Shown here piece by piece: positions 4,202 to 27,988 of a DNA stretch of 47,359 bases. Below the pieces are notes generated by a model, which made no database searches, was not told the origin of the DNA, and was given only the letters and a program-made list of their open reading frames with translations. Source of the stretch: Candidatus Woesearchaeota archaeon. Lineage in GTDB: Archaea; Nanobdellota; Nanobdellia; SCGC-AAA011-G17; DATDVL01. A program made the translations under genes and the position numbers. The stretch is from contig CAYIRJ010000004.1 in NCBI GenBank assembly GCA_964365915.1, positions 1 through 47,359 on the forward strand, written 5' to 3'. Position 1 is the stretch's first letter; each line of letters opens with the position of its first letter.

Positions 4202-6811
4202 ATGGCAGAGGACTACGTTTACAAATATGTGGACCAGATCCAGTTTGGACTGTTAAGCCCGGAAGAGATCCAGAAAATGAGTGCAGTAAAAGTTGTGACG
4301 CCTGAGCTGTATGACAATGAAGGATACCCTGTGGATGGAGGATTGATGGATATTCGCCTGGGGGTGATTGATCCTGGCTTACGATGCAAGACTTGTGGAG
4401 GGAAACTCAAGGAATGCATGGGGCACTTTGGCTATATTGACTTGGCACGGCCTGTTATTCATATCAAGTACATCAAGATGCTTCTGGATTGCTTGCGGTC
4501 TTCCTGCAGAGAGTGTGGGAAATTATTGCTGCAAGATAAGGACATGGAGAAATGGGGTCATCGCTTAACAAAATCACAGGCAGAAGGGGGAGAAGATGCA
4601 CGCAGGGATGTGGTGAGTTCAGTCATTACTAGTGTGAAGAATATCAGAAAATGTCCGCACTGTAAGGCGAAACAATATAGTATCAAGATCGAGAAACCCA
4701 GCACCTTTATGGAAAATGACAGAAGATTGACTCCTATTGAGATCAGGACAAGGCTAGAACGCATTCCTGATGATGCACTAGTGTATCTGGGATTACAATC
4801 GAAATCTGCACGCCCTGAATGGGCAGTGATGAGTATTTTGAATATTCCTCCCGTAACCATGCGGCCGAGTATTACTTTGGAAACAGGAGAACGGAGCGAG
4901 GATGATTTGACGCACAAGTTGGGAGATGTGGTCAGGATCAACCAGCGGTTATTTGAGAACATCAATGCAGGCGCTCCTGAAATCATTGTGGAGGACTTGT
5001 GGGACTTACTGCAGTACCATGTGACAACCTACTTGGATAATACCATCAGCCAGGTTCCTCCTGCACGGCACAGAAGCGGACAGGCATTGAAAACCTTAAC
5101 CGAGCGCATCAAGAGCAAGGAAGGAAGATTCCGCCATAATCTCGCAGGGAAGCGCGTTAACTATGCTGCACGCACAGTCATCAGTCCTGATCCGAAAATC
5201 AAGTTCAATGAAGTGGGCATCCCCCAGCGGGTAGCAATGGAACTGACGGTTCCTGAGCGAGTGAATGTCTGGAATATTGCATTGCTGAAGGAACTGATTG
5301 AGCGCGGTCCTGAAGTGTATCCGGGAGCGAACTATGTCATTAGACATGACGGCAAGAAAAAACAGATTACTGAAGAAACACGAGAAGTGATTCTTGCGGA
5401 ATTGGGACCGGGCATGATTGTGGAACGGCATCTTGTGGATGGGGACATTGCTTTATTCAACCGGCAACCGAGCTTGCATAGGATGAGCATCATGTGCCAT
5501 CGCATTCGCGTACTTCCGGGAAAAAGTTTTCGGTTGAATCCGAGCGTGTGCAATGCGTTCAATGCAGACTTTGATGGAGATGAGATGAACTTGCACGTTC
5601 CGCAGACTGAGGAAGCGCGTGCAGAAGCAGAAATCCTGATGGAAGTGCAGACCCAGCTCATTACTCCGAAGCATGGCTATAATGTCATGGGATGTGTGGA
5701 AGATGCAGTTACCGGACTCTACTTGCTGACGAAGGGGGAGGGCATGCCATTTTCCAAAGAGGAGGCTGTACAACTGTTTGTTAGCATTGGTATTGAAGAT
5801 CCTAAGATCACCCGACAAAAAGTTAATGGAAAGGAATTGTTCAGCATGCTGCTGCCGAAGGATTTTACCTATGAAGGACTTGCCAAAGGTGTGCCGAAAG
5901 ATGCGGAATTAAAAAGAGGAGATGATGGCTTGGTTATTATTGAAAACGGGCAACTGGTGAGCGGCGTCATTGATGCCAATGCTGTCGGAGAAGAACGCGG
6001 AAAAATGATCATGGAATTTTATCGGCGCTATGGCCCGGTAACCACCATCGAATTTTTAGGGAACATCTTCAGGCTGGGGATTAAGGTCTTGCTGAAGCGC
6101 GGGTTTACGATCAGCATTGACGACATCGACATTACTGAGGAAGTGCAAGAGAAAATTACTACATCACTTAGCCAAGGGGATAAGGACGTGGATGAACTGG
6201 TCAAAGAATACCATGCAGGCAAGATGGAAACGCTGCCAGGAAGAACCCTTGCAGAAACTTTAGAAATCAAAACCTTAGGAGTCCTGAACAAGATCCGCGA
6301 CAAAATCGGACAATATGTTGCACAAAACACGCGTCCAAAAAATTCTGCGGTGATCATGGCAAAATCAGGTGCCAAAGGAAAAATTTTGAACCTTGCCCAG
6401 ATGTCAGGGTGCGTCGGGCAGCAGGCACTGATGGGACACCGCATTACTACGGGATACAAAGGAAGAACTTTGAGCATGTTCAAAAAGCACGATTTGTCTG
6501 CAAATGCGCACGGATTTGTGAAGAGCAGCTTCAAAAGAGGATTAAATCCTTACGAGTTTTTCTTCCATGCCATGACCGGAAGAGATGGATTAATGGATAC
6601 TGCACTGCGCACTCCTAAGTCTGGTTATCTTTATCGAAGGCTGGCAAATGCATTGCAAGACATGAAAGTGGAGTATGACAACAGTATCCGAGATGCCAAC
6701 AAGAACATCGTGCAGTTTGCCTATGGTGAAGACGGACTTGAAGTCAGCAAAACTTGGGGAGGCAATCTCAACATCAAGCGCATTGTGAAGAGTGTCAAAC
6801 ATGAAAGATAA
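4202..6811 (+). CDS. rpoA1: RNA polymerase subunit A'
   Basis: 869 aa. Zn motif CKTCGGKLKECMGHFG and catalytic NADFDGDEMNLHVPQ. Confidence 0.96.
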   Translation: MAEDYVYKYVDQIQFGLLSPEEIQKMSAVKVVTPELYDNEGYPVDGGLMDIRLGVIDPGLRCKTCGGKLKECMGHFGYIDLARPVIHIKYIKMLLDCLRSSCRECGKLLLQDKDMEKWGHRLTKSQAEGGEDARRDVVSSVITSVKNIRKCPHCKAKQYSIKIEKPSTFMENDRRLTPIEIRTRLERIPDDALVYLGLQSKSARPEWAVMSILNIPPVTMRPSITLETGERSEDDLTHKLGDVVRINQRLFENINAGAPEIIVEDLWDLLQYHVTTYLDNTISQVPPARHRSGQALKTLTERIKSKEGRFRHNLAGKRVNYAARTVISPDPKIKFNEVGIPQRVAMELTVPERVNVWNIALLKELIERGPEVYPGANYVIRHDGKKKQITEETREVILAELGPGMIVERHLVDGDIALFNRQPSLHRMSIMCHRIRVLPGKSFRLNPSVCNAFNADFDGDEMNLHVPQTEEARAEAEILMEVQTQLITPKHGYNVMGCVEDAVTGLYLLTKGEGMPFSKEEAVQLFVSIGIEDPKITRQKVNGKELFSMLLPKDFTYEGLAKGVPKDAELKRGDDGLVIIENGQLVSGVIDANAVGEERGKMIMEFYRRYGPVTTIEFLGNIFRLGIKVLLKRGFTISIDDIDITEEVQEKITTSLSQGDKDVDELVKEYHAGKMETLPGRTLAETLEIKTLGVLNKIRDKIGQYVAQNTRPKNSAVIMAKSGAKGKILNLAQMSGCVGQQALMGHRITTGYKGRTLSMFKKHDLSANAHGFVKSSFKRGLNPYEFFFHAMTGRDGLMDTALRTPKSGYLYRRLANALQDMKVEYDNSIRDANKNIVQFAYGEDGLEVSKTWGGNLNIKRIVKSVKHER

Positions 6812-9398
6812 CGCAATTGATTTTGCAGCAGCACTGCCGAAAAAAATTTTGGATGAGTTTGAAGAGCTGGCAGCAGCAGAAAAATTAACGCAGAAACAGA
6901 AACAGGAAGCACTGGCACTGCTGCATGAAGAATATCAGAACAGCAAGATCAGCCCTGGGGAGGCGATTGGGATCATCACTGCAGAGAGCTTTGGCGAACC
7001 AGGGACTCAAATGTCACTATTTTTTAGTAACAAAATAATTGTGAAAATAAACAACAATAAAATATTTACGGTAAAAATTGGACCGTTTGTTGATATGTTA
7101 ATGAAGATGAAAGGATCATTTAAACTCAACGATCATTCAGAAATTCTTCCTTTACATGATTTTGAAATTTATGTTCCTAGTTTAAATCAAGAAGAAAAGA
7201 TAGAATGGAAACGCGTGATTGAATGTAGTAGGCATATCACAAACAAAAAACTTATGAGAATTACTACTGCTTCTGGTAGGTCTGTTACCTGTACTGATAA
7301 TCACTCTTTTGTAAATCGTATTCATAATAAGATTACTCCAATAAAAGGGACAGAATTGCAAATTGGAAATAGAATTCCCGTTATTAATTCATTTGTGAAT
7401 CCCTTACCGATGCAAGAATTATCTATCAAAAACCACATCATCGATAATGAAGGAATAGTTGAAGAAAAAGGCGTACTTTCCAAACCAGGAACTAATGCTA
7501 AATCTATGAATGGAAGTTTACCATTAAATGAATCTACTGGATGGTTTATTGGTGCATATCTTGCAGAAGGCAATGGAGGAAAATACCACGCTTCTCTTTC
7601 CAATGTAAATGATAATTACATCAATAACGGTAAACGCTTCGCTGATTCTCTAGGTATTGAACCTGTCGACAGATTTTATATTGGAGAATATGGTCCAGGT
7701 AGATCATTAACATTACATTCTGGATTTTTAGGTAGTTTCATTATAACTCATTGTGGGCAAGGTTCAGATTTCAAAAAAGTCCCTTACTTTGCTTATTCTG
7801 CATCTGATGCGTTCATCTCTGGATTGCTGAGAGGCTACTTTGATGGCGATGGGAATTTCCATGTGGATAGAAAGATGATTCGCTGCTCTTCCAATTCCAA
7901 AGAATTAATAGATGGCATTGCCTTGCTGTTGTCACGATTCAGAATATTTTCCTTTAAAGTACAAGATAAGAAAGGGCAGCACTGGCTCTTGATTCCCTAT
8001 AAGTATGCTCCTTTATTCTTGCAGCACATTGGAAGCGATATTGATTACAAACGTGCTAGCCTCGAAACTTTAGCAGAAAAAGCCAAACGCTTCTGGAATT
8101 CGAGAAGCCAAGATTATACAGACATGATTTCAGGATTTGGAGAACTTTTCAGGAATACTGCAAAGAAGGTTGGCTATCCTACGCGTTACGTCAATAACTT
8201 TACGAACCGCCAAAAAATTGGAAGAACTGCCCTCTTCCGATACATGAAACTCTTTGAACATCTTGCCAAGGAAAAAAACATAGACATTAAGGATGAGCTT
8301 GCTATCATGCAGCGCATGTCTTCCTCTGATGTGGTGTGGGATGAGATTGTAAAGATTGAATATGTCGATAATGACAAGCCTGTTTATGACCTCAGCGTGC
8401 CAGGATTAGAAACATTCACGACAGCAGATGGCATTATCACCCATAACACTTTGAATGTTTTTCACTTTGCAGGCGTCGCGGAAGTGGCAGTGACCCAAGG
8501 ATTGCCCAGGCTTATTGAACTGTTTGATGCCAGAAAAGAAATCAAGACTCCTTTAATGGAAATTTATCTGGACAAGGATATTGCCAAGGATCCTGAAAAA
8601 GTGAGGAAGATGGCTGCACAAATCAGGGAAACCCGTGTCGAGGAAGTGGTCAGTGATTTTTCCATTGATGTTGCACGGCTGCAGATTGCATTGGTGCTGG
8701 ACAAACAGAAGATGAGAAACCTTTCCATTACCAACAATCAGCTAATGAAAGCACTGGAACAGGACATTAAAACTGCCTCGATCAAGGATGAAGGAGATAG
8801 CATTGTACTGAAAACTAAGGTAAAGGAAAATGAGCTGATGGAAACGTACAAGCTGAAGGAAAAAACAAAAACAGTGTTTGTCCGGGGAGTTGCGGGCATC
8901 ACCCAAGTATTGCCAGTGAAGGCAGGCAACGAGTTCATTATCCTTGCAGCAGGGTCGAATCTGAAGGAAGTGTTCGCACTGAAAGGAGTGGATGCTGCAC
9001 GTACGACTACGAACGACATCTTTGAAGTGCAAAAAGTGCTGGGTATTGAGGCAGCACGGCAGACCATCATTAACGAGGCGAAAAAAGTGATTGAGGACCA
9101 AGGACTGGAAGTGGATGTCCGTCATATTTTGTTTATTGCAGATGCCATGACTGCAACAGGAGTAGTAAAAGGGATTACTCGATCAGGCATTACTGGAGAG
9201 AAGGAAAGCGTGCTTGCCCGGGCCAGCTTTGAAACCCCTATTGAACACTTGGTGGATGCCTCGCTGGTGGGAGAAGTAGACTATTTGAATTCCGTCATTG
9301 AAAATGTGATGCTGAACCAGATTGTTCCTTTGGGAACAGGATTGCCTGACCTCAGGGCAGTGACCCAAACTGAGGACAAGGAAAAGAAGGAAGCATGA
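6792..9398 (+). CDS. rpoA2: RNA polymerase subunit A'' interrupted by an intein (390-aa extein plus 478-aa intein)
   Basis: The conserved A'' string GEPGTQM|TLNVFHFAGVAE is split by 478 aa. The ORF-track start at 6792 is GTG. ATG at 6801 is the alternative start. The gene overlaps the rpoA' stop (6809-6811). Confidence 0.93.
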   Translation: MSNMKDNAIDFAAALPKKILDEFEELAAAEKLTQKQKQEALALLHEEYQNSKISPGEAIGIITAESFGEPGTQMSLFFSNKIIVKINNNKIFTVKIGPFVDMLMKMKGSFKLNDHSEILPLHDFEIYVPSLNQEEKIEWKRVIECSRHITNKKLMRITTASGRSVTCTDNHSFVNRIHNKITPIKGTELQIGNRIPVINSFVNPLPMQELSIKNHIIDNEGIVEEKGVLSKPGTNAKSMNGSLPLNESTGWFIGAYLAEGNGGKYHASLSNVNDNYINNGKRFADSLGIEPVDRFYIGEYGPGRSLTLHSGFLGSFIITHCGQGSDFKKVPYFAYSASDAFISGLLRGYFDGDGNFHVDRKMIRCSSNSKELIDGIALLLSRFRIFSFKVQDKKGQHWLLIPYKYAPLFLQHIGSDIDYKRASLETLAEKAKRFWNSRSQDYTDMISGFGELFRNTAKKVGYPTRYVNNFTNRQKIGRTALFRYMKLFEHLAKEKNIDIKDELAIMQRMSSSDVVWDEIVKIEYVDNDKPVYDLSVPGLETFTTADGIITHNTLNVFHFAGVAEVAVTQGLPRLIELFDARKEIKTPLMEIYLDKDIAKDPEKVRKMAAQIRETRVEEVVSDFSIDVARLQIALVLDKQKMRNLSITNNQLMKALEQDIKTASIKDEGDSIVLKTKVKENELMETYKLKEKTKTVFVRGVAGITQVLPVKAGNEFIILAAGSNLKEVFALKGVDAARTTTNDIFEVQKVLGIEAARQTIINEAKKVIEDQGLEVDVRHILFIADAMTATGVVKGITRSGITGEKESVLARASFETPIEHLVDASLVGEVDYLNSVIENVMLNQIVPLGTGLPDLRAVTQTEDKEKKEA
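7014..8447 (+). mobile_element. Intein with LAGLIDADG homing endonuclease, in frame in rpoA''
   Basis: Starts at Ser (TCA 7014) right after GEPGTQM. Ends ..VYDLSVPGLETFTTADGIITHN (AAC 8445-8447), followed by Thr+1. Block B is TCTDNHSF. Two LAGLIDADG motifs: GWFIGAYLAEGNG and LLRGYFDGDGNF. The 5' part is very AT-rich (10/60 G+C at 7021-7080, against 30/60 at 6961-7020). Confidence 0.9.
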
Positions 9399-9652: not shown

Positions 9653-10060
9653 ATGCAGTATGACCTCCAGTTGATTGGCTATCTCAATACTTTTGAATCC
9701 CTAACCCGATCGAAAGTGAAGGATGTGTTCTTTGATGCTACGGAGACCTTGGTGTTTGTGATGCAGCCAGGAGAGATGGGAAAAGCCATTGGCAAGAAAG
9801 GCAGCAATGTGAAACGCTTAGGAAACTTGCTGAAGAAGCGCATTCGCGTTATTGAATTTTCTTCTTCTGCCATTGATTTTGTTAAAAATTGCACGCTGCC
9901 CTTGATTCCGAAAAAGATGGTGCAGGAAGTGGATACTATCACTATCACCATGGAAAATACGCAACAGAAGGCTATGCTGCTGGGAAGGAACAAAAGCAAT
10001 TTCTTGAATATGCAGAAGATAGTGCAGAGATATTATCCGGTGCAGCTGAAAGTGTTATAG
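9653..10060 (+). CDS. nusA: archaeal NusA-like transcription termination/antitermination protein (KH domains)
   Basis: 135 aa. KH signature GKAIGKKGSNVKRL. In the canonical position after rpl30e. Confidence 0.85.
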   Translation: MQYDLQLIGYLNTFESLTRSKVKDVFFDATETLVFVMQPGEMGKAIGKKGSNVKRLGNLLKKRIRVIEFSSSAIDFVKNCTLPLIPKKMVQEVDTITITMENTQQKAMLLGRNKSNFLNMQKIVQRYYPVQLKVL

Positions 10061-11266
10061 AAATATATCATCCTCAGCATCGTAGTCCATTCCTAAGGCC
10101 TTTGTGAATTTTACTTGGTTTTCCTTGATCTGCAGTTTTTGCAGTGCCTTGTTCCTTATTTGTCGAATTCTTTCTCGTGTCACGTTTCCCTCGATTGTAC
10201 CTACTTCTTCCAATGTTCTTTTTTCTCCTGTAAGATACAATAATCTTATTATTCTTTTTTCTCTTTCTTTTAAAGAAGTTTTATCAAGTGCTTGAATAAT
10301 CATTTCTTTATCATAGACTAAAATATTTTCCCTTATCCTTTCTTGGTAATCATGGCAATCTCTTTTTTCCAAATAATCAACTATTTCTTGATCTTGTTGA
10401 TTGTGCTGAATATTTTCTTTTGCTGGAGTTAAGTCCTGCTTAGCTCTGTCATCTAATGTCAACGTTCGATGAAGATTCTGATCTTTGGGTTCTTGGTAAA
10501 GAGTGTTTATTTCTAGATTTACAGGATTCAAAGCCTTGCATATTAATTCAGTTTTTTTATCCGCAATTTCTTCTCCTCTTATTACCTTTTCTGCCCTTAG
10601 GAATAAAAAAGAATCTAGATGCACTGCTGCATAGGAATAGTTATGATAATTTTCACTCATTACACCAAAAAAGGCAGCTCTATACACTGCTGTGTATCCT
10701 GGATGTTTTTCTGCTTTTCTCACGAAATTAATAATAGATATAGAAGCCCGCTGTATGAGATCTTCCAATGGTGGTGATTCTAAATTCCTTGATTTTCTAT
10801 AGCGAATAAATGATTTTCCTGCCTGCGTGGCTGTATGCAGAAAATACGTCTCCATAAATCGTTGCATCTCTTGTTCAGAATATCCTGCTTCTTTCAACGC
10901 TGGAGCAATATGCCCTCGATAATGATGTACAAATGTTGCATGGTATCTTTGATTTACTTCTTCTTGCGTGGCAGATGGGTGCTGCTGTAAAAATTTGAGA
11001 AAGTTCCTTTTTCTTTCATCCCAGACTTTCTCTGACAATTGCCCTTTTCCCCTATTCCAAGCTGATTTTGAAATGCCTACATCTTTTTTTGCATTGTTAA
11101 TTCTCAACCGGTAGAACTTTTTGAGAATGGATTCTAGTCCTGCTTTCCTTACATCCCTTATGCTCGCTCCTTGATGACTTGCTAAATAGTCATAAAATTC
11201 TGTTAATCCTCTTTCCCAATATGCGTAATCCTTCTGTACCTGTTTTTGCTCTGATATAGTAGTCAT
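10055..11266 (-). CDS. sigma-70 family-like protein (region 2-like and region 4 HTH)
   Basis: 403 aa. The C-terminus LKEREKRIIRLLYLTGEKRTLEEVGTIEGNVTRERIRQIRNKALQKLQ is the classic sigma-70 region 4.1/4.2 signature. LEDLIQRASISIINFVRKAEKHPGYTAVYRAAF resembles region 2.1-2.3. The gene is AT-rich (15/60 G+C at 10201-10260). Confidence 0.8.
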   Translation of the reverse strand: MTTISEQKQVQKDYAYWERGLTEFYDYLASHQGASIRDVRKAGLESILKKFYRLRINNAKKDVGISKSAWNRGKGQLSEKVWDERKRNFLKFLQQHPSATQEEVNQRYHATFVHHYRGHIAPALKEAGYSEQEMQRFMETYFLHTATQAGKSFIRYRKSRNLESPPLEDLIQRASISIINFVRKAEKHPGYTAVYRAAFFGVMSENYHNYSYAAVHLDSFLFLRAEKVIRGEEIADKKTELICKALNPVNLEINTLYQEPKDQNLHRTLTLDDRAKQDLTPAKENIQHNQQDQEIVDYLEKRDCHDYQERIRENILVYDKEMIIQALDKTSLKEREKRIIRLLYLTGEKRTLEEVGTIEGNVTRERIRQIRNKALQKLQIKENQVKFTKALGMDYDAEDDIFL

Positions 11267-25274: not shown

Positions 25275-25583
25275 ATGCCTCAAGCAAGAATCAACTTATC
25301 ATCCTTAGACATTGGAAAATTGAATGAGATCTGTACCAGCATTGTCGACATTGCAGATAAAACGAAGACCCAAATTTCCGGACCGATTCCTCTGCCGACG
25401 AAGCGATTGCGCCATACGGTGAGAAAAAGCCCGTGTGGAAATGGAAAAGCTTCCTTTGATAATTTTGAGATGCGCATCCATAAGCGCTTGATCTACATGG
25501 GCATTGATGATCGAGCATTGCGATTAGTCATGAGAGTTCCTATTCCTGAAGGGGTCCAAATCAGTATTGCAAGCGTTGAGTAA
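25275..25583 (+). CDS. rps10: 30S ribosomal protein S10 (uS10)
   Basis: 102 aa. ..GPIPLPTKRLRHTVRKSPCGNGKASFDNFEMRIHKRLI. Confidence 0.93.
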   Translation: MPQARINLSSLDIGKLNEICTSIVDIADKTKTQISGPIPLPTKRLRHTVRKSPCGNGKASFDNFEMRIHKRLIYMGIDDRALRLVMRVPIPEGVQISIASVE

Positions 25584-25687: not shown

Positions 25688-26119
25688 ATGGATGTTCAGC
25701 ATGCGTGCCATTGTTCATATAGGATTCGCTATCACATGGTGTTTGTGCTCAAGTATAGGAAAAATCTCATCAGCGATGAGATATTTGAATTTCTGAAAGA
25801 AATTTGCAAAGGGATTGAACAGCGTTACTTCATCAAGTTCGATGCTCTTGGCAGCGATGGAGATCATCTGCATTTGGTGATTGAAGCTGCTCCTCGCTAT
25901 GCTCCATCAAATGTTATGCAGATCTGCAAGAGCATTCTTGCAAAGCAAGTCTTCAAGCAATTTCCTGAAGTGCGTGAAGAGCTGTGGAATGGAGAGTTCT
26001 GGAGTGATGGAGGACACATTGATACTGTTGGAGATGGCAGAGGACTGGATGCAGTCAGGCAATATGTAGAAAAGCAAGGTAAGAAATCAGATCAGCTCAC
26101 ACTCTACTCGTTCGTCTGA
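25688..26119 (+). CDS. tnpA: IS200/IS605 family transposase TnpA (Y1, HUH)
   Basis: 143 aa. YHMVFVLKYRK, HUH motif GDHLHLVIE, and a C-terminal ..VRQYVEKQ tyrosine helix. Confidence 0.9.
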   Translation: MDVQHACHCSYRIRYHMVFVLKYRKNLISDEIFEFLKEICKGIEQRYFIKFDALGSDGDHLHLVIEAAPRYAPSNVMQICKSILAKQVFKQFPEVREELWNGEFWSDGGHIDTVGDGRGLDAVRQYVEKQGKKSDQLTLYSFV

Positions 26120-26531
26120 TACCCCGCAGCTCTGCTGCGGTTGGGTAGTTCATTTGAGCAAATTCATTCCCGGATAGATCTTTGAGAAGAATATAATTTC
26201 CGGAAGGATCTCTTGCAAATAGTTGATACGTCGGAAGCTGTTGCGAATCTTTGATAATAAAACTTGTGGAGCCTATTGTCTGGTTTATCCTGATTTCCAA
26301 GGGGATTCCCAAACCGTAAATAATATACGAAAGCGCCGATGCAACCCCGAAATCGGATGGTCTTGCAGCAATTTCTATCCTTCTTTCAAAGTCTAAGGCA
26401 TACACCCCTTTCTTAAGCATCCAAGTCTCTCCCTCTTTCTTTTTCATTTCTTCTGCAGATGTGATGCGCTCGCGCTCAAGAAAATCCAAGATATCTTTGC
26501 TGATTAGTTTTCGCAATTGAGAAGTTATCAT
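26097..26531 (-). CDS. hypothetical protein (144 aa); the last 14 codons are encoded by the IS right end
   Basis: Long ORF with a TATA about 24 nt upstream. The C-terminal TAAELRGIRRTSRV is read from the IS hairpin and the tnpA 3' end. Confidence 0.5.
   Translation of the reverse strand: MITSQLRKLISKDILDFLERERITSAEEMKKKEGETWMLKKGVYALDFERRIEIAARPSDFGVASALSYIIYGLGIPLEIRINQTIGSTSFIIKDSQQLPTYQLFARDPSGNYILLKDLSGNEFAQMNYPTAAELRGIRRTSRV
26119..26141 (+). repeat. IS right-end hairpin repeat ATACCCCGCAGCTCTGCTGCGGT
   Basis: Identical to 25633-25655. It starts at the last base of the tnpA stop codon. Confidence 0.85.
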
Positions 26532-26614: not shown

Positions 26615-26625
26615 CTTTAAAAAAG
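26615..26625 (+). promoter_or_regulatory. TATA box (CTTTAAAAAAG) for the tRNA at 26648
   Basis: Centre lies about 28 nt upstream of tRNA position 1. Confidence 0.5.
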
Positions 26626-26647: not shown

Positions 26648-26767
26648 GCCGCAGTCGCATAACCTGGTATTGCACAAATCAAGTTTTGAGTGTAGGCCTG
26701 GAAACTTCCAGAATTACTAGGGAGCTTGACCTGAAAGGGTATCACGGTTCAAATCCGTGCTGCGGCG
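26648..26767 (+). tRNA. intron-containing tRNA, isotype unresolved (best model anticodon UUG/Gln, with non-canonical extra nucleotides)
   Basis: Perfect 7-bp acceptor: GCCGCAG (26648-26654) pairs with CTGCGGC (26760-26766); discriminator G. D-loop AACCTGGTA is canonical. T-arm is CACGG-TTCAAAT-CCGTG. The only canonical anticodon arm is TCAAG (26679-26683) with loop TT-TTG-A and, after about 34 nt, CTTGA (26725-26729). That model leaves 4 extra nt (CAAA, 26675-26678) after position 26 and a 13-nt class-II-like variable arm (CCT-GAA-AGG-GTAT). Confidence 0.7.
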
Positions 26768-27063: not shown

Positions 27064-27441
27064 ATGCACCTTATGGAATCTTATCCTGTAACGATTACTG
27101 CTTCCCTTGATGAAGAGCTACAGCATACAACAACTGCAAGCTTTGCAGGCTATCAACCTGATAATATTGAACGTGATGAGGATGGATTCTTACGGGTATT
27201 TCTGAACAGTTATCAAATAGGAGACACGGAAACGTTAGGATTTATGAACTGGTATTCTCCTGAAAAAGTTGTCTTCATTAATGCAGATAAAGTAAGAACG
27301 CAGCCCGCGCTTGAATGGATTGTGTTGCATGAAAAAGGGCATACTTTGCATACGAATGAATTAACAAACAGAAGACACACCTATACTTACAATAACTATG
27401 CCATGCGTTCTCCTGAATTGATTCTTTCGGGAACGTACTAA
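27064..27441 (+). CDS. putative small zinc metallopeptidase (HExxH)
   Basis: Contains IVLHEKGHTLH. TATA TATTTAAG (27034-27041) lies about 27 nt upstream of ATG 27064. The ORF-track start at 26983 would overlap the divergent gene. Confidence 0.45.
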   Translation: MHLMESYPVTITASLDEELQHTTTASFAGYQPDNIERDEDGFLRVFLNSYQIGDTETLGFMNWYSPEKVVFINADKVRTQPALEWIVLHEKGHTLHTNELTNRRHTYTYNNYAMRSPELILSGTY

Positions 27442-27662
27442 GGCCTTCTGAAAAAGATCAGCATGAGAATAAAAATAATTATTGCAAGTATCCAGAGTAC
27501 GAAAAATATTTTTTTGTTGCCAAAACCAAACAACGGAATCGGGCCGAGAAAGATTCCTCCGGAAGCCTGCACATTATTTTTATTTTGCTGCAAAGATCCC
27601 ACAATAATAAGAAGGAGAGCAATGAACAATAAGATTATTCCGATATTGAACAAATTTGTCAT
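27438..27662 (-). CDS. small two-TM membrane protein (DUF131/TIGR00304-like)
   Basis: 74 aa. Two hydrophobic helices flank GGIFLGPIPLFGFG. Confidence 0.5.
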   Translation of the reverse strand: MTNLFNIGIILLFIALLLIIVGSLQQNKNNVQASGGIFLGPIPLFGFGNKKIFFVLWILAIIIFILMLIFFRRP

Positions 27663-27706: not shown

Positions 27707-27988
27707 TTACTCAGGATTAGGCATTAAGTCTGCAGGTGATGTGTGACCAATATTAATGAGCAGATCCACGCTTTTCAGATAAGCAGGATAGTCGCAGGAA
27801 CCCCAATTCGTGTCTAGCCAGATGACTATCTTTGCTTTTGTTTTCTTTCCTAGATAATCAGCAATAGCAGTGGCATAGGGCTTCAACCCATCTGCCAACT
27901 GGATACAGACTGTTCTCGCTTTCTCTTTTTTGATGCGCGCAATGATTTCCGGCCATTCCAAATCATATCCCTTGATGTGAGGTTGCAT
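27707..27988 (-). pseudogene. dph2: N-terminal remnant (93 aa) of diphthamide synthase Dph2
   Basis: ..ARTVCIQLADGLKPYATAIADYL...IVIWLDTNWGSCDYPAYLKSVDLLINIGHTS aligns with the first ~90 aa of archaeal Dph2 (~330-340 aa), including the first Fe-S cysteine. The remaining two thirds are absent. Confidence 0.65.

Follow-up and report, generated by a model that had tools for sequence, protein, structure and literature searches.

Archaeal tRNA genes can carry non-canonical introns, up to three per gene, and the site between positions 29 and 30 (29/30) is among those already known (PMC4090602). Multi-intron tRNA genes have been described in Crenarchaeota and Thaumarchaeota, for example in the Thermoproteales Pyrobaculum and Caldivirga, where introns usually occupy the canonical site 37/38 together with others, such as 22/23, 25/26, 29/30, 30/31 and 45/46 (PMC4090602). 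Here we analysed a 47,359-nucleotide (nt) stretch of contig CAYIRJ010000004.1 from a Candidatus Woesearchaeota archaeon, referred to below as the window, and within it the 120-nt region 26648-26767. We propose, with a probability of about 93%, that this region is a functional archaeal tRNA-Ser(GGA) gene of the DPANN Woesearchaeota/Nanoarchaeia group, interrupted by two bulge-helix-bulge (BHB) introns, one at the non-canonical position 29/30 and one at the canonical position 37/38.

The likeness to the crenarchaeal and thaumarchaeal genes is twofold. Both have introns of the type removed by the tRNA splicing endonuclease EndA, in relaxed HBh' or hBH forms of the motif (the strict form, hBHBh', has both outer helices), and both escape plain covariance models until the sequence has been pre-spliced (PMC4090602, PMC8450103). 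In contrast, the host of the window gene is a mesophilic groundwater archaeon of DPANN, whereas the compared organisms are TACK thermophiles, and the endonuclease is presumably of another architecture. A second comparison is the tRNA-Ala(CGC/UGC) of Caldivirga maquilingensis, which has the same 29/30 break point and BHB-like processing (PMC4090602). However, that tRNA is trans-spliced from separate loci, while the window gene carries an 18-nt intron in cis between contiguous flanks.

The remaining comparisons come from Kaneta et al. (PMC5829648). There, the pre-tRNA-Glu(UUC) of Methanopyrus kandleri likewise contains two introns, one canonical/strict and one relaxed, and experiments suggest that the canonical one is removed first. 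It differs from the window gene in its D-loop intron site, its Glu isotype and its (alpha-beta)2 enzyme, and in that splicing of the window gene is predicted from its sequence. Relaxed forms of the motif (HBh'/hBH, or bulge-helix-loop, BHL) are described as substrates of broad-specificity EndAs only. For DPANN, with a Woesearchaeota genome included, the authors report EndAs with an 'L3' loop, in several lineages of the alpha4 type, and for ARMAN the epsilon2 type of EndA. They also report more disrupted tRNA genes and incomplete tRNA sets, whose gaps they attribute to undetected disrupted genes, and they link the L3-loop EndAs to the increased tRNA disruption and to the incomplete sets. The paper concerns the same superphylum and, as far as we read it, does not describe a tRNA-Ser intron family at 29/30.

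The anatomy that we assign to the window gene is as follows.
26616-26624 (+): TATA-box-like element TTTAAAAAA, at -32 to -24 from the first tRNA base, a putative promoter judging from its sequence
26648-26767 (+): whole tRNA-Ser(GGA) gene, three exons and two introns, CCA not encoded; assigned from the spliced fold, the profile score and the consensus fold
26648-26677 (+): exon 1, tRNA positions 1-29, comprising the 5' strand of the acceptor, U8 and C9, the D arm, A26, and C27, A28 and A29
26678-26695 (+): intron 1, ATCAAGTTTTGAGTGTAG, 18 nt, at the non-canonical position 29/30, within the anticodon stem (5' strand); assigned from BHB geometry and from the site and motif in 8 relatives
26696-26703 (+): exon 2, positions 30-37, comprising G30 and C31, C32 and U33, the anticodon G34 G35 A36 (26700-26702), and A37
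26704-26722 (+): intron 2, ACTTCCAGAATTACTAGGG, 19 nt, at the canonical position 37/38; assigned from BHB geometry and from a homologous intron in the related loci L025, L037 and L054
26723-26767 (+): exon 3, positions 38-73, comprising A38, the anticodon-stem 3' strand GCTTG, the variable arm, the T arm, the acceptor 3' strand and G73
26729-26742 (+): variable arm ACCTGAAAGGGTAT, with stem CCU/GGG and a GAAA loop

For intron 2, boundaries at 26705-26723 are equally possible and give an identical product. L numbers, here and below, denote loci retrieved in our searches for relatives.

A preliminary description of this DNA had called it a genuine tRNA gene because of its acceptor stem, D loop, T arm and TATA box, and inspection of 26648-26767 found each of them in place. 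The acceptor stem GCCGCAG/CTGCGGC is paired at 7/7 base pairs (bp) and followed by G73. The D arm reads GCA-TAACCTGGTAT-TGC, with a 3-bp stem and with G18G19 present, and the T arm reads CACGG-TTCAAAT-CCGTG, including the element GTTCAAATC that a cloverleaf requires. The 3' flank is TAC, not CCA. The same description had found no standard cloverleaf, which is true of the unspliced DNA, on which both ARAGORN and the Rfam tRNA model fail.

We enumerated all ways of removing one segment or two from local nt 28-95 of the gene (254,026 excisions, giving 135,025 distinct products) and scored the products with a profile hidden Markov model (HMM) built from 15 intronless Woesearchaeota tRNA-Ser genes. 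The excision (30,48)+(56,75), which corresponds to the two introns listed above, ranked first of the 135,025 products at 70.9 bits, against a median of 51.9 bits and 62.8 bits for the best product with a single intron. Profile scoring was used instead of ARAGORN, which accepted 8,730 of the 135,025 products as tRNAs of dozens of isotypes. ARAGORN is undiscriminating here, since an acceptor, a D arm and a T arm are enough for it to make a call.

Removal of both introns leaves an RNA of 83 nt. ARAGORN identifies it as tRNA-Ser(gga), and at minimum energy (-30.5 kcal/mol) it folds into an exact class-II cloverleaf with perfect stems throughout. The anticodon stem is CAAGC/GCUUG, and the 7-nt loop, CU-GGA-AA, has U33 and a purine at position 37. 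The same loop occurs in the intronless relatives L004 and L007, the latter of which reads ...GCG-CAAGC-CTGGAAA-GCTTG-... and thus has an anticodon arm identical to that of the spliced window gene. A long variable arm with its own stem and a G73 discriminator are identity features of tRNA-Ser. The spliced product has both, its variable region ACCUGAAAGGGUAU being 14 nt long with a CCU/GGG stem, so the Ser-like, class-II impression recorded in the preliminary description (long variable arm, 3-bp D stem, G73) was well founded. An RNAalifold consensus of the window tRNA with 7 spliced and 12 intronless relatives is also a class-II cloverleaf. Of its 25 pairs, 14 show compensatory changes and essentially none is broken, and the variable arm covaries. 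The product would decode UCC and UCU, and it is predicted to be a substrate of SerRS and to serve in translation.

The contiguous sequence can also be read as a tRNA-Gln(UUG) gene, as the preliminary description had done. This model has an anticodon arm TCAAG/UU-UUG-A/.../CTTGA, built from TCAAG at 26679-26683 and CTTGA at 26725-26729, and an intron of ~34 nt at 37/38; it leaves CAAA (26675-26678) unexplained, and the product was perhaps a class-II reader of CAA/CAG. The 5-bp complementarity is real, reaching 9 bp in the unspliced minimum-energy fold, and ARAGORN does call the spliced product of this model tRNA-Gln(ttg), but only with a distorted D arm. The product scores 55.9 bits, compared with 70.9 bits for the Ser model. 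Its exon-intron junction gives a poor BHB, with a central helix of U-G, U-G, U-A and UxU and no distal helix. The variable loop of 4-5 nt expected of a class-I tRNA-Gln is absent, and the anticodon stem does not begin right after position 26. Instead, 4 extra nt follow A26, and these, the Ser-type variable arm of 13-14 nt (of which the preliminary description had singled out the 13-nt segment CCTGAAAGGGTAT, 26730-26742) and G73 all go unexplained. Moreover, the TCAAG/CTTGA pairing and the UUUUG loop are missing from L025, L037 and L038, where the CTGGAA loop and the 29/30 intron are kept, and the gene near rps10 in several relatives is a tRNA-Ser. We therefore regard a tRNA-Gln here as almost certainly wrong.

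With tRNA-Ser(GGA) and its two introns, the puzzling segments find a place. The four nucleotides CAAA, previously counted as surplus, are C27, A28, A29 and the first base of intron 1. TCAAG/CTTGA is the only anticodon arm as long as the sequence is read contiguously, but it loses that status once the introns are removed, when it appears as a chance pairing of the 5' part of intron 1 (UCAAG) with the 3' stem strand plus A44 (CUUGA). Two explanations that the preliminary description had offered, a second, non-canonical intron and a different anticodon, are borne out by intron 1 at 29/30 and by the GGA exposed after both excisions; a class-II-bodied tRNA reading CAA/CAG gives way to the two-intron Ser(GGA).

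The complementarity behind the Gln misreading spans 9 bp, between UCAAGUUUU (26679-26687) in intron 1 and GGGAGCUUGA (26721-26729), which covers the end of intron 2 and the 3' strand of the anticodon stem. It dominates the minimum-energy rod of the unspliced RNA. As it is not kept in L025, L037 and L038, it is probably due to chance, though it might influence folding or the order of splicing. Two other candidates were considered and rejected: a split or permuted tRNA, as the halves are contiguous and in normal order, and a Leu(CAA) loop at AUCAAGU, as the stem that it needs leaves a 6-nt loop and G73 is not Leu-like.

We then looked at the geometry of the splice motifs, in which ^ marks the predicted cut. 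For intron 1, the central helix joins 26672-26675 (GCAC) to 26690-26693 (GTGT) with 4/4 positions paired (G24-U, C25-G, A26-U, C27-G). It is flanked by bulges of 3 nt each in the canonical register (5' AA^A, 3' AG^G), and a 4-bp distal helix, 26679-26682 (TCAA) with 26686-26689 (TTGA), closes a GTT loop. For intron 2, the central helix joins 26698-26701 (CTGG) to 26717-26720 (CTAG), again with 4/4 paired (C32-G, U33-A, G34-U, G35-C), with bulges AA^A and GG^A and a 5-bp proximal helix. The local minimum-energy fold of nt 20-51 recovers the central and distal helices of intron 1 and its 5' bulge. It also contains a U24-A47 pair, which is not conserved in relatives and would make the 3' bulge shorter. 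When intron 2 is removed in silico, the minimum-energy fold keeps the intron 1 helices. G24 and C25 belong to the intron 1 central helix as well as to the 3-bp D stem; the two are thus mutually exclusive, and the central helix can form only with the D stem open. A scan of the 120 nt for BHB motifs alone returned 160 with a 4/4 central helix, with both introns within the top six. The candidates are thus not unique, and BHB geometry by itself is insufficient to solve the gene.

To place the gene among its relatives, we searched one representative genome per prokaryotic species with the pattern GCCGCAGT ... GGTTCRAATCCNNNCTGCGGCG. This gave 43 loci, 36 of them archaeal and mostly labelled Woesearchaeota, Nanoarchaeia or Nanoarchaeota (DPANN). 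All 36 archaeal loci are tRNA-Ser genes, 82-127 nt long, with anticodons GGA, UGA, CGA or GCU. A MAFFT alignment of intron-containing and intronless genes misplaced the gaps, and the introns were therefore parsed by hand and checked by script. By this manual parsing, 16 of the 36 are intronless, 15 have a canonical intron only, one (L039) has a D-arm intron and four (L023, L025, L037, L038) have an extra insertion after position 29. A second scan, of metagenomes, for genes with an insertion at the 29/30 site added L049, L050/L052, L054, L055, L056 and L057. The last of these, on a contig from a Hainich groundwater metagenome, is an identical gene, and the contig itself matches the window at 99.8% identity over 2058 nt. 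The 29/30 intron is thus also found in L025, L037, L054, L038, L049, L050/L052, L055, L056 and L023.

Across nine distinct sequences, the 29/30 intron is 16-30 nt long and keeps the same bulges (WA^A and AG^G). Its central helix occurs as GCAC/GTGT, GCAC/GTGC and GCGC/GCGT, that is, with one G-U/G-C change and one compensatory change, from A-U to G-C in the last form. In this register, 97.2% of the cells are paired, versus 0-69% in slid registers. Neither the sequence nor the length of the distal region is conserved; a helix can form there in most relatives, and RNAfold predicts none in L055. L055 (950-1007, -, and downstream) carries a 21-nt intron at 29/30 and no canonical intron, which shows that the two introns have been gained or lost independently. 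L056 and L023 are Ser(UGA) genes with the 29/30 intron. After splicing, the relatives all fold as class-II cloverleaves.

Several points weigh against a two-intron tRNA-Ser(GGA). Intron 1 has no proximal closing helix, leaving a relaxed motif of the HBh' type, and intron 2 has no distal helix, leaving a relaxed hBH/bulge-helix-loop form whose central helix and 3' bulge are good but whose 5' cut site falls in a loop. Neither intron, then, has the strict hBHBh' form. The most stable structure computed for the unspliced transcript is a rod (-45.1 kcal/mol) without either BHB, and tRNA-like conformers reach only about -26 to -28 kcal/mol, so folding in vivo must be kinetic or protein-guided. The covariation in the intron 1 helix comes from 9 sequences only, and 17 of 500 shuffles do equally well. 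Gene searches of the window found no EndA gene within its 47,359 nt. Finally, moving the boundary of intron 1 by 1-3 nt gives products of 70.3-70.7 bits, against 70.9 bits, and the profile alone cannot separate them.

This last point raises the question of whether the gene is a Ser(GGA) with two introns in which intron 1 is shifted 1-3 nt in the 5' direction, to 26/27, 27/28 or 28/29, with a stem UAGGC/GCUUG or CAGGC/GCUUG. Besides the near-equal scores, such products have 5-bp stems if G-U pairs are allowed. As the scores are almost tied, it is BHB geometry and Watson-Crick pairing in the stem that decide the exact site. The shifted placements form just 2-3 of the 4 central pairs, and only at 29/30 do 4/4 central pairs, 3-nt bulges and a 4-bp distal helix come together. 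The all-Watson-Crick stem, identical to that of L007, is likewise obtained at 29/30 only, so this is the one placement that combines it with a proper BHB. In L025, the 26/27 placement would put an A-A mismatch in the stem. We consider a shifted intron 1 extremely improbable and retain 29/30.

A different concern is that the gene is a decayed tRNA-Ser, whose insertions are not removed and which yields no functional tRNA, a possibility also raised in the preliminary description. The standard finders reject the gene, an IS200 transposase gene lies just upstream, and both BHB motifs are relaxed. Yet the cloverleaf stems are all perfect after excision, and the architecture is kept across relatives whose S10 proteins are 66-91% identical. 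The anticodon stem covaries in these relatives (CAAGC/GCTTG or CTAGC/GCTAG), and a compensatory change is seen in the BHB helix. In two metagenome-assembled genomes (MAGs), CAZJUI01 (L025/L036) and DATDYQ01 (L037/L020), the two-intron gene is the sole Ser(GGA) matched by the acceptor-based pattern. The promoter box is conserved as well. Most of the related genes that we examined have a TATA-like box at about -24 to -33, and A/T boxes (TTTATAAA, TTTAAAAG, TTTAAAAAAG, TTTAAATAA) are found at a similar distance upstream of L025, L037, L038, L049, L056, L001 and L008. Together with the conserved linkage to rps10, described below, these boxes make a pseudogene unlikely, and taking all of this evidence we judge decay very unlikely.

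Our model for the processing of the tRNA-Ser(GGA) transcript, in which we infer expression, exact cut sites and enzymes, the last by analogy with archaeal systems that have been characterised, is the following. Transcription would start from the upstream TATA box. EndA would then cut in the 3-nt bulges that flank each 4-bp central helix, at the predicted sites 26677/26678, 26695/26696, 26703/26704 and 26722/26723. An RtcB-type ligase would join the three exons, and RNase P and RNase Z would trim the ends. Since the gene does not encode CCA, this would be added post-transcriptionally, and since both motifs are relaxed, the pathway would require a broad-specificity EndA. The mature RNA is predicted to contain the junctions GCACAA^GCCTGGAA^AGCTTG or, in wider form, TTGCACAA^GCCTGGAA^AGCTTGACC. 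Introns that have been circularised would be joined at GAGTGTAG^ATCAAGTT (intron 1) and TACTAGGG^ACTTCCAG (intron 2).

The gene is poorly served by the programs that we used. ARAGORN in default mode reports no tRNA in the whole window; with introns allowed, its proposal, a Gly(UCC) whose intron measures 24 nt and whose variable arm is giant, is implausible. With cmscan, the Rfam tRNA model does not match the gene at the gathering score, nor at E<=10 on a 221-nt slice, where the only hit is a chance match to a small RNA. The model does find the tRNA-Asp and tRNA-Lys genes at 469-669. Among the relatives, it misses L038, L049, L055 and L039 and matches L025 at 37.8 bits. The preliminary description had pointed to a covariance-model fold as the check on isotype, and this was achieved in part. 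Our own covariance model, R1 (15 intronless relatives, filters off), returned only fragments on the unspliced window, scoring 26.8 bits for the 3' part and 12 bits for the D arm, because Infernal cannot bridge two long inserts. Profile scoring and the consensus fold of the pre-spliced sequence served as an approximation. tRNAscan-SE 2.0 seeks non-canonical introns by default, with BHB models trained on Crenarchaeota, Euryarchaeota and Thaumarchaeota, not DPANN (PMC8450103). A genome annotated with ARAGORN and the Rfam tRNA model would seem to lack tRNA-Ser(GGA), and a naive reading by hand points to a Gln or recoding tRNA of an exotic kind, one that does not exist.

Three further observations emerged from the search for relatives. 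L039 (590-711, -) is a Woesearchaeota tRNA-Ser(GGA) gene with a 38-nt insertion in the D arm, between GGTAC and TGCG at about position 22/23, and without an anticodon-loop intron. It adds another kind of non-canonical intron to this tRNA family; it is among the genes missed by the Rfam model, and ARAGORN miscalls it as Ala. Two intronless Woesearchaeota tRNA-Ser genes, L004 and L007, have in their upstream flank, ~20-40 nt away (about 1260-1300 in L004), a copy resembling the variable arm (GTTTCCTTCGGGATAC or GTTCCCGCAAGGATAC), which may have been left by a partial duplication of a tRNA or by an integration event. The pattern also retrieved tRNA-like sequences of 114-116 nt from Lachnospiraceae (Blautia, Acetatifactor), at L011 862-977 (-), L031 6867-6980 (+) and L035 6885-7000 (-). 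They have the GCCGCAG acceptor, normal D and T arms and ~40 extra nt that include the hairpin GGGTCTTGACAAAGACCC. L011 scores 43.9 bits with the Rfam tRNA model, and ARAGORN gives three isotypes for the three near-identical copies. These loci are bacterial and unrelated to the window gene.

Regarding the genomic context, two genes precede the tRNA gene on the same strand.
25275-25583 (+): rps10, ribosomal protein S10 (Pfam Ribosomal_S10, 2e-27)
25688-26119 (+): IS200-type transposase gene, between rps10 and the tRNA gene (Pfam Y1_Tnp, 1.8e-30)

An open reading frame (ORF) of 144 amino acids (aa) at 26097-26531 (-) overlaps the transposase ORF, and Pfam gives no match for it. Of the loci that were fetched, L057, which is near-identical, is alone in having the transposase gene and this ORF. 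The gap between S10 and the tRNA gene is ~0.5 kb in L049 and 1.07 kb in the window; this wider gap and the restriction to L057 suggest a recent insertion of the transposase region. S10 is found near tRNA-Ser in L049, L023, L034, L025, L001, L008, L017, L054 and L038, several of which also have EF-1alpha nearby. In several relatives, rps10 is within a few kb of tRNA-Ser, mostly upstream and on the same strand. In the window, the block rpoB/rpoA - S12 - S7 - EF-2 - EF-1alpha ... S10 follows the conserved archaeal order.

The two other tRNA genes of the window, tRNA-Asp(GUC) (469-565, +) and tRNA-Lys(UUU) (568-669, +), stand in tandem 2 nt apart, just upstream of the RNA polymerase B/A operon. 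Their canonical 37/38 introns, of 25 and 28 nt, have near-strict BHB motifs with 7-bp proximal helices, and these junctions are cleaner than those of the tRNA-Ser gene, as had been remarked before. Elsewhere in the window, the gene for RNA polymerase subunit A'' (Rpb1 domain 5; 6792-9398, +) contains an intein with a LAGLIDADG homing-endonuclease domain. The C-terminal part of a 403-aa ORF at 10055-11266 (-) matches sigma-70 region 4 (helix-turn-helix, 1.3e-10), which is the only domain hit in that ORF. Downstream of the tRNA gene, a 93-aa ORF at 27707-27988 (-) matches the diphthamide-synthesis (Dph2) profile, which has 302 positions, over its first ~55 positions only, and nothing in the other frames continues the match; the ORF is either the remnant of a truncation or a fragment that stands alone. 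After it comes a hydrophobic ORF of 74 aa (27438-27662).

Introns at 29/30 and multi-intron tRNAs are already documented in archaea, and the understanding of tRNA splicing is unchanged by this case. The points that are modestly new are the DPANN host and the conserved tRNA-Ser intron family at 29/30. One may go further and suppose that this intron is an undescribed, vertically inherited family, specific to tRNA-Ser (GGA, UGA) in a clade of groundwater Woesearchaeota, and that, with its BHB central helix formed by nucleotides of the D stem and of position 26/27, it must be spliced from a pre-tRNA whose D arm is unfolded, the enzyme being an L3-loop EndA of the alpha4 type, a class once thought to be limited to strict canonical motifs. 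We offer this as a speculative and, on balance, unlikely extension. If true, these genes would be natural substrates with which to test how the endonucleases of DPANN came by their broad specificity, and they would explain some of the 'missing' tRNAs in DPANN MAG annotations. The gene itself is a documented DPANN case of a 29/30 intron in cis together with a canonical intron, accompanied by a small family of relatives, and it fits the hints of hidden disrupted tRNA genes in these archaea. Its practical value lies mainly in annotation, in that it illustrates how DPANN tRNA genes escape it.

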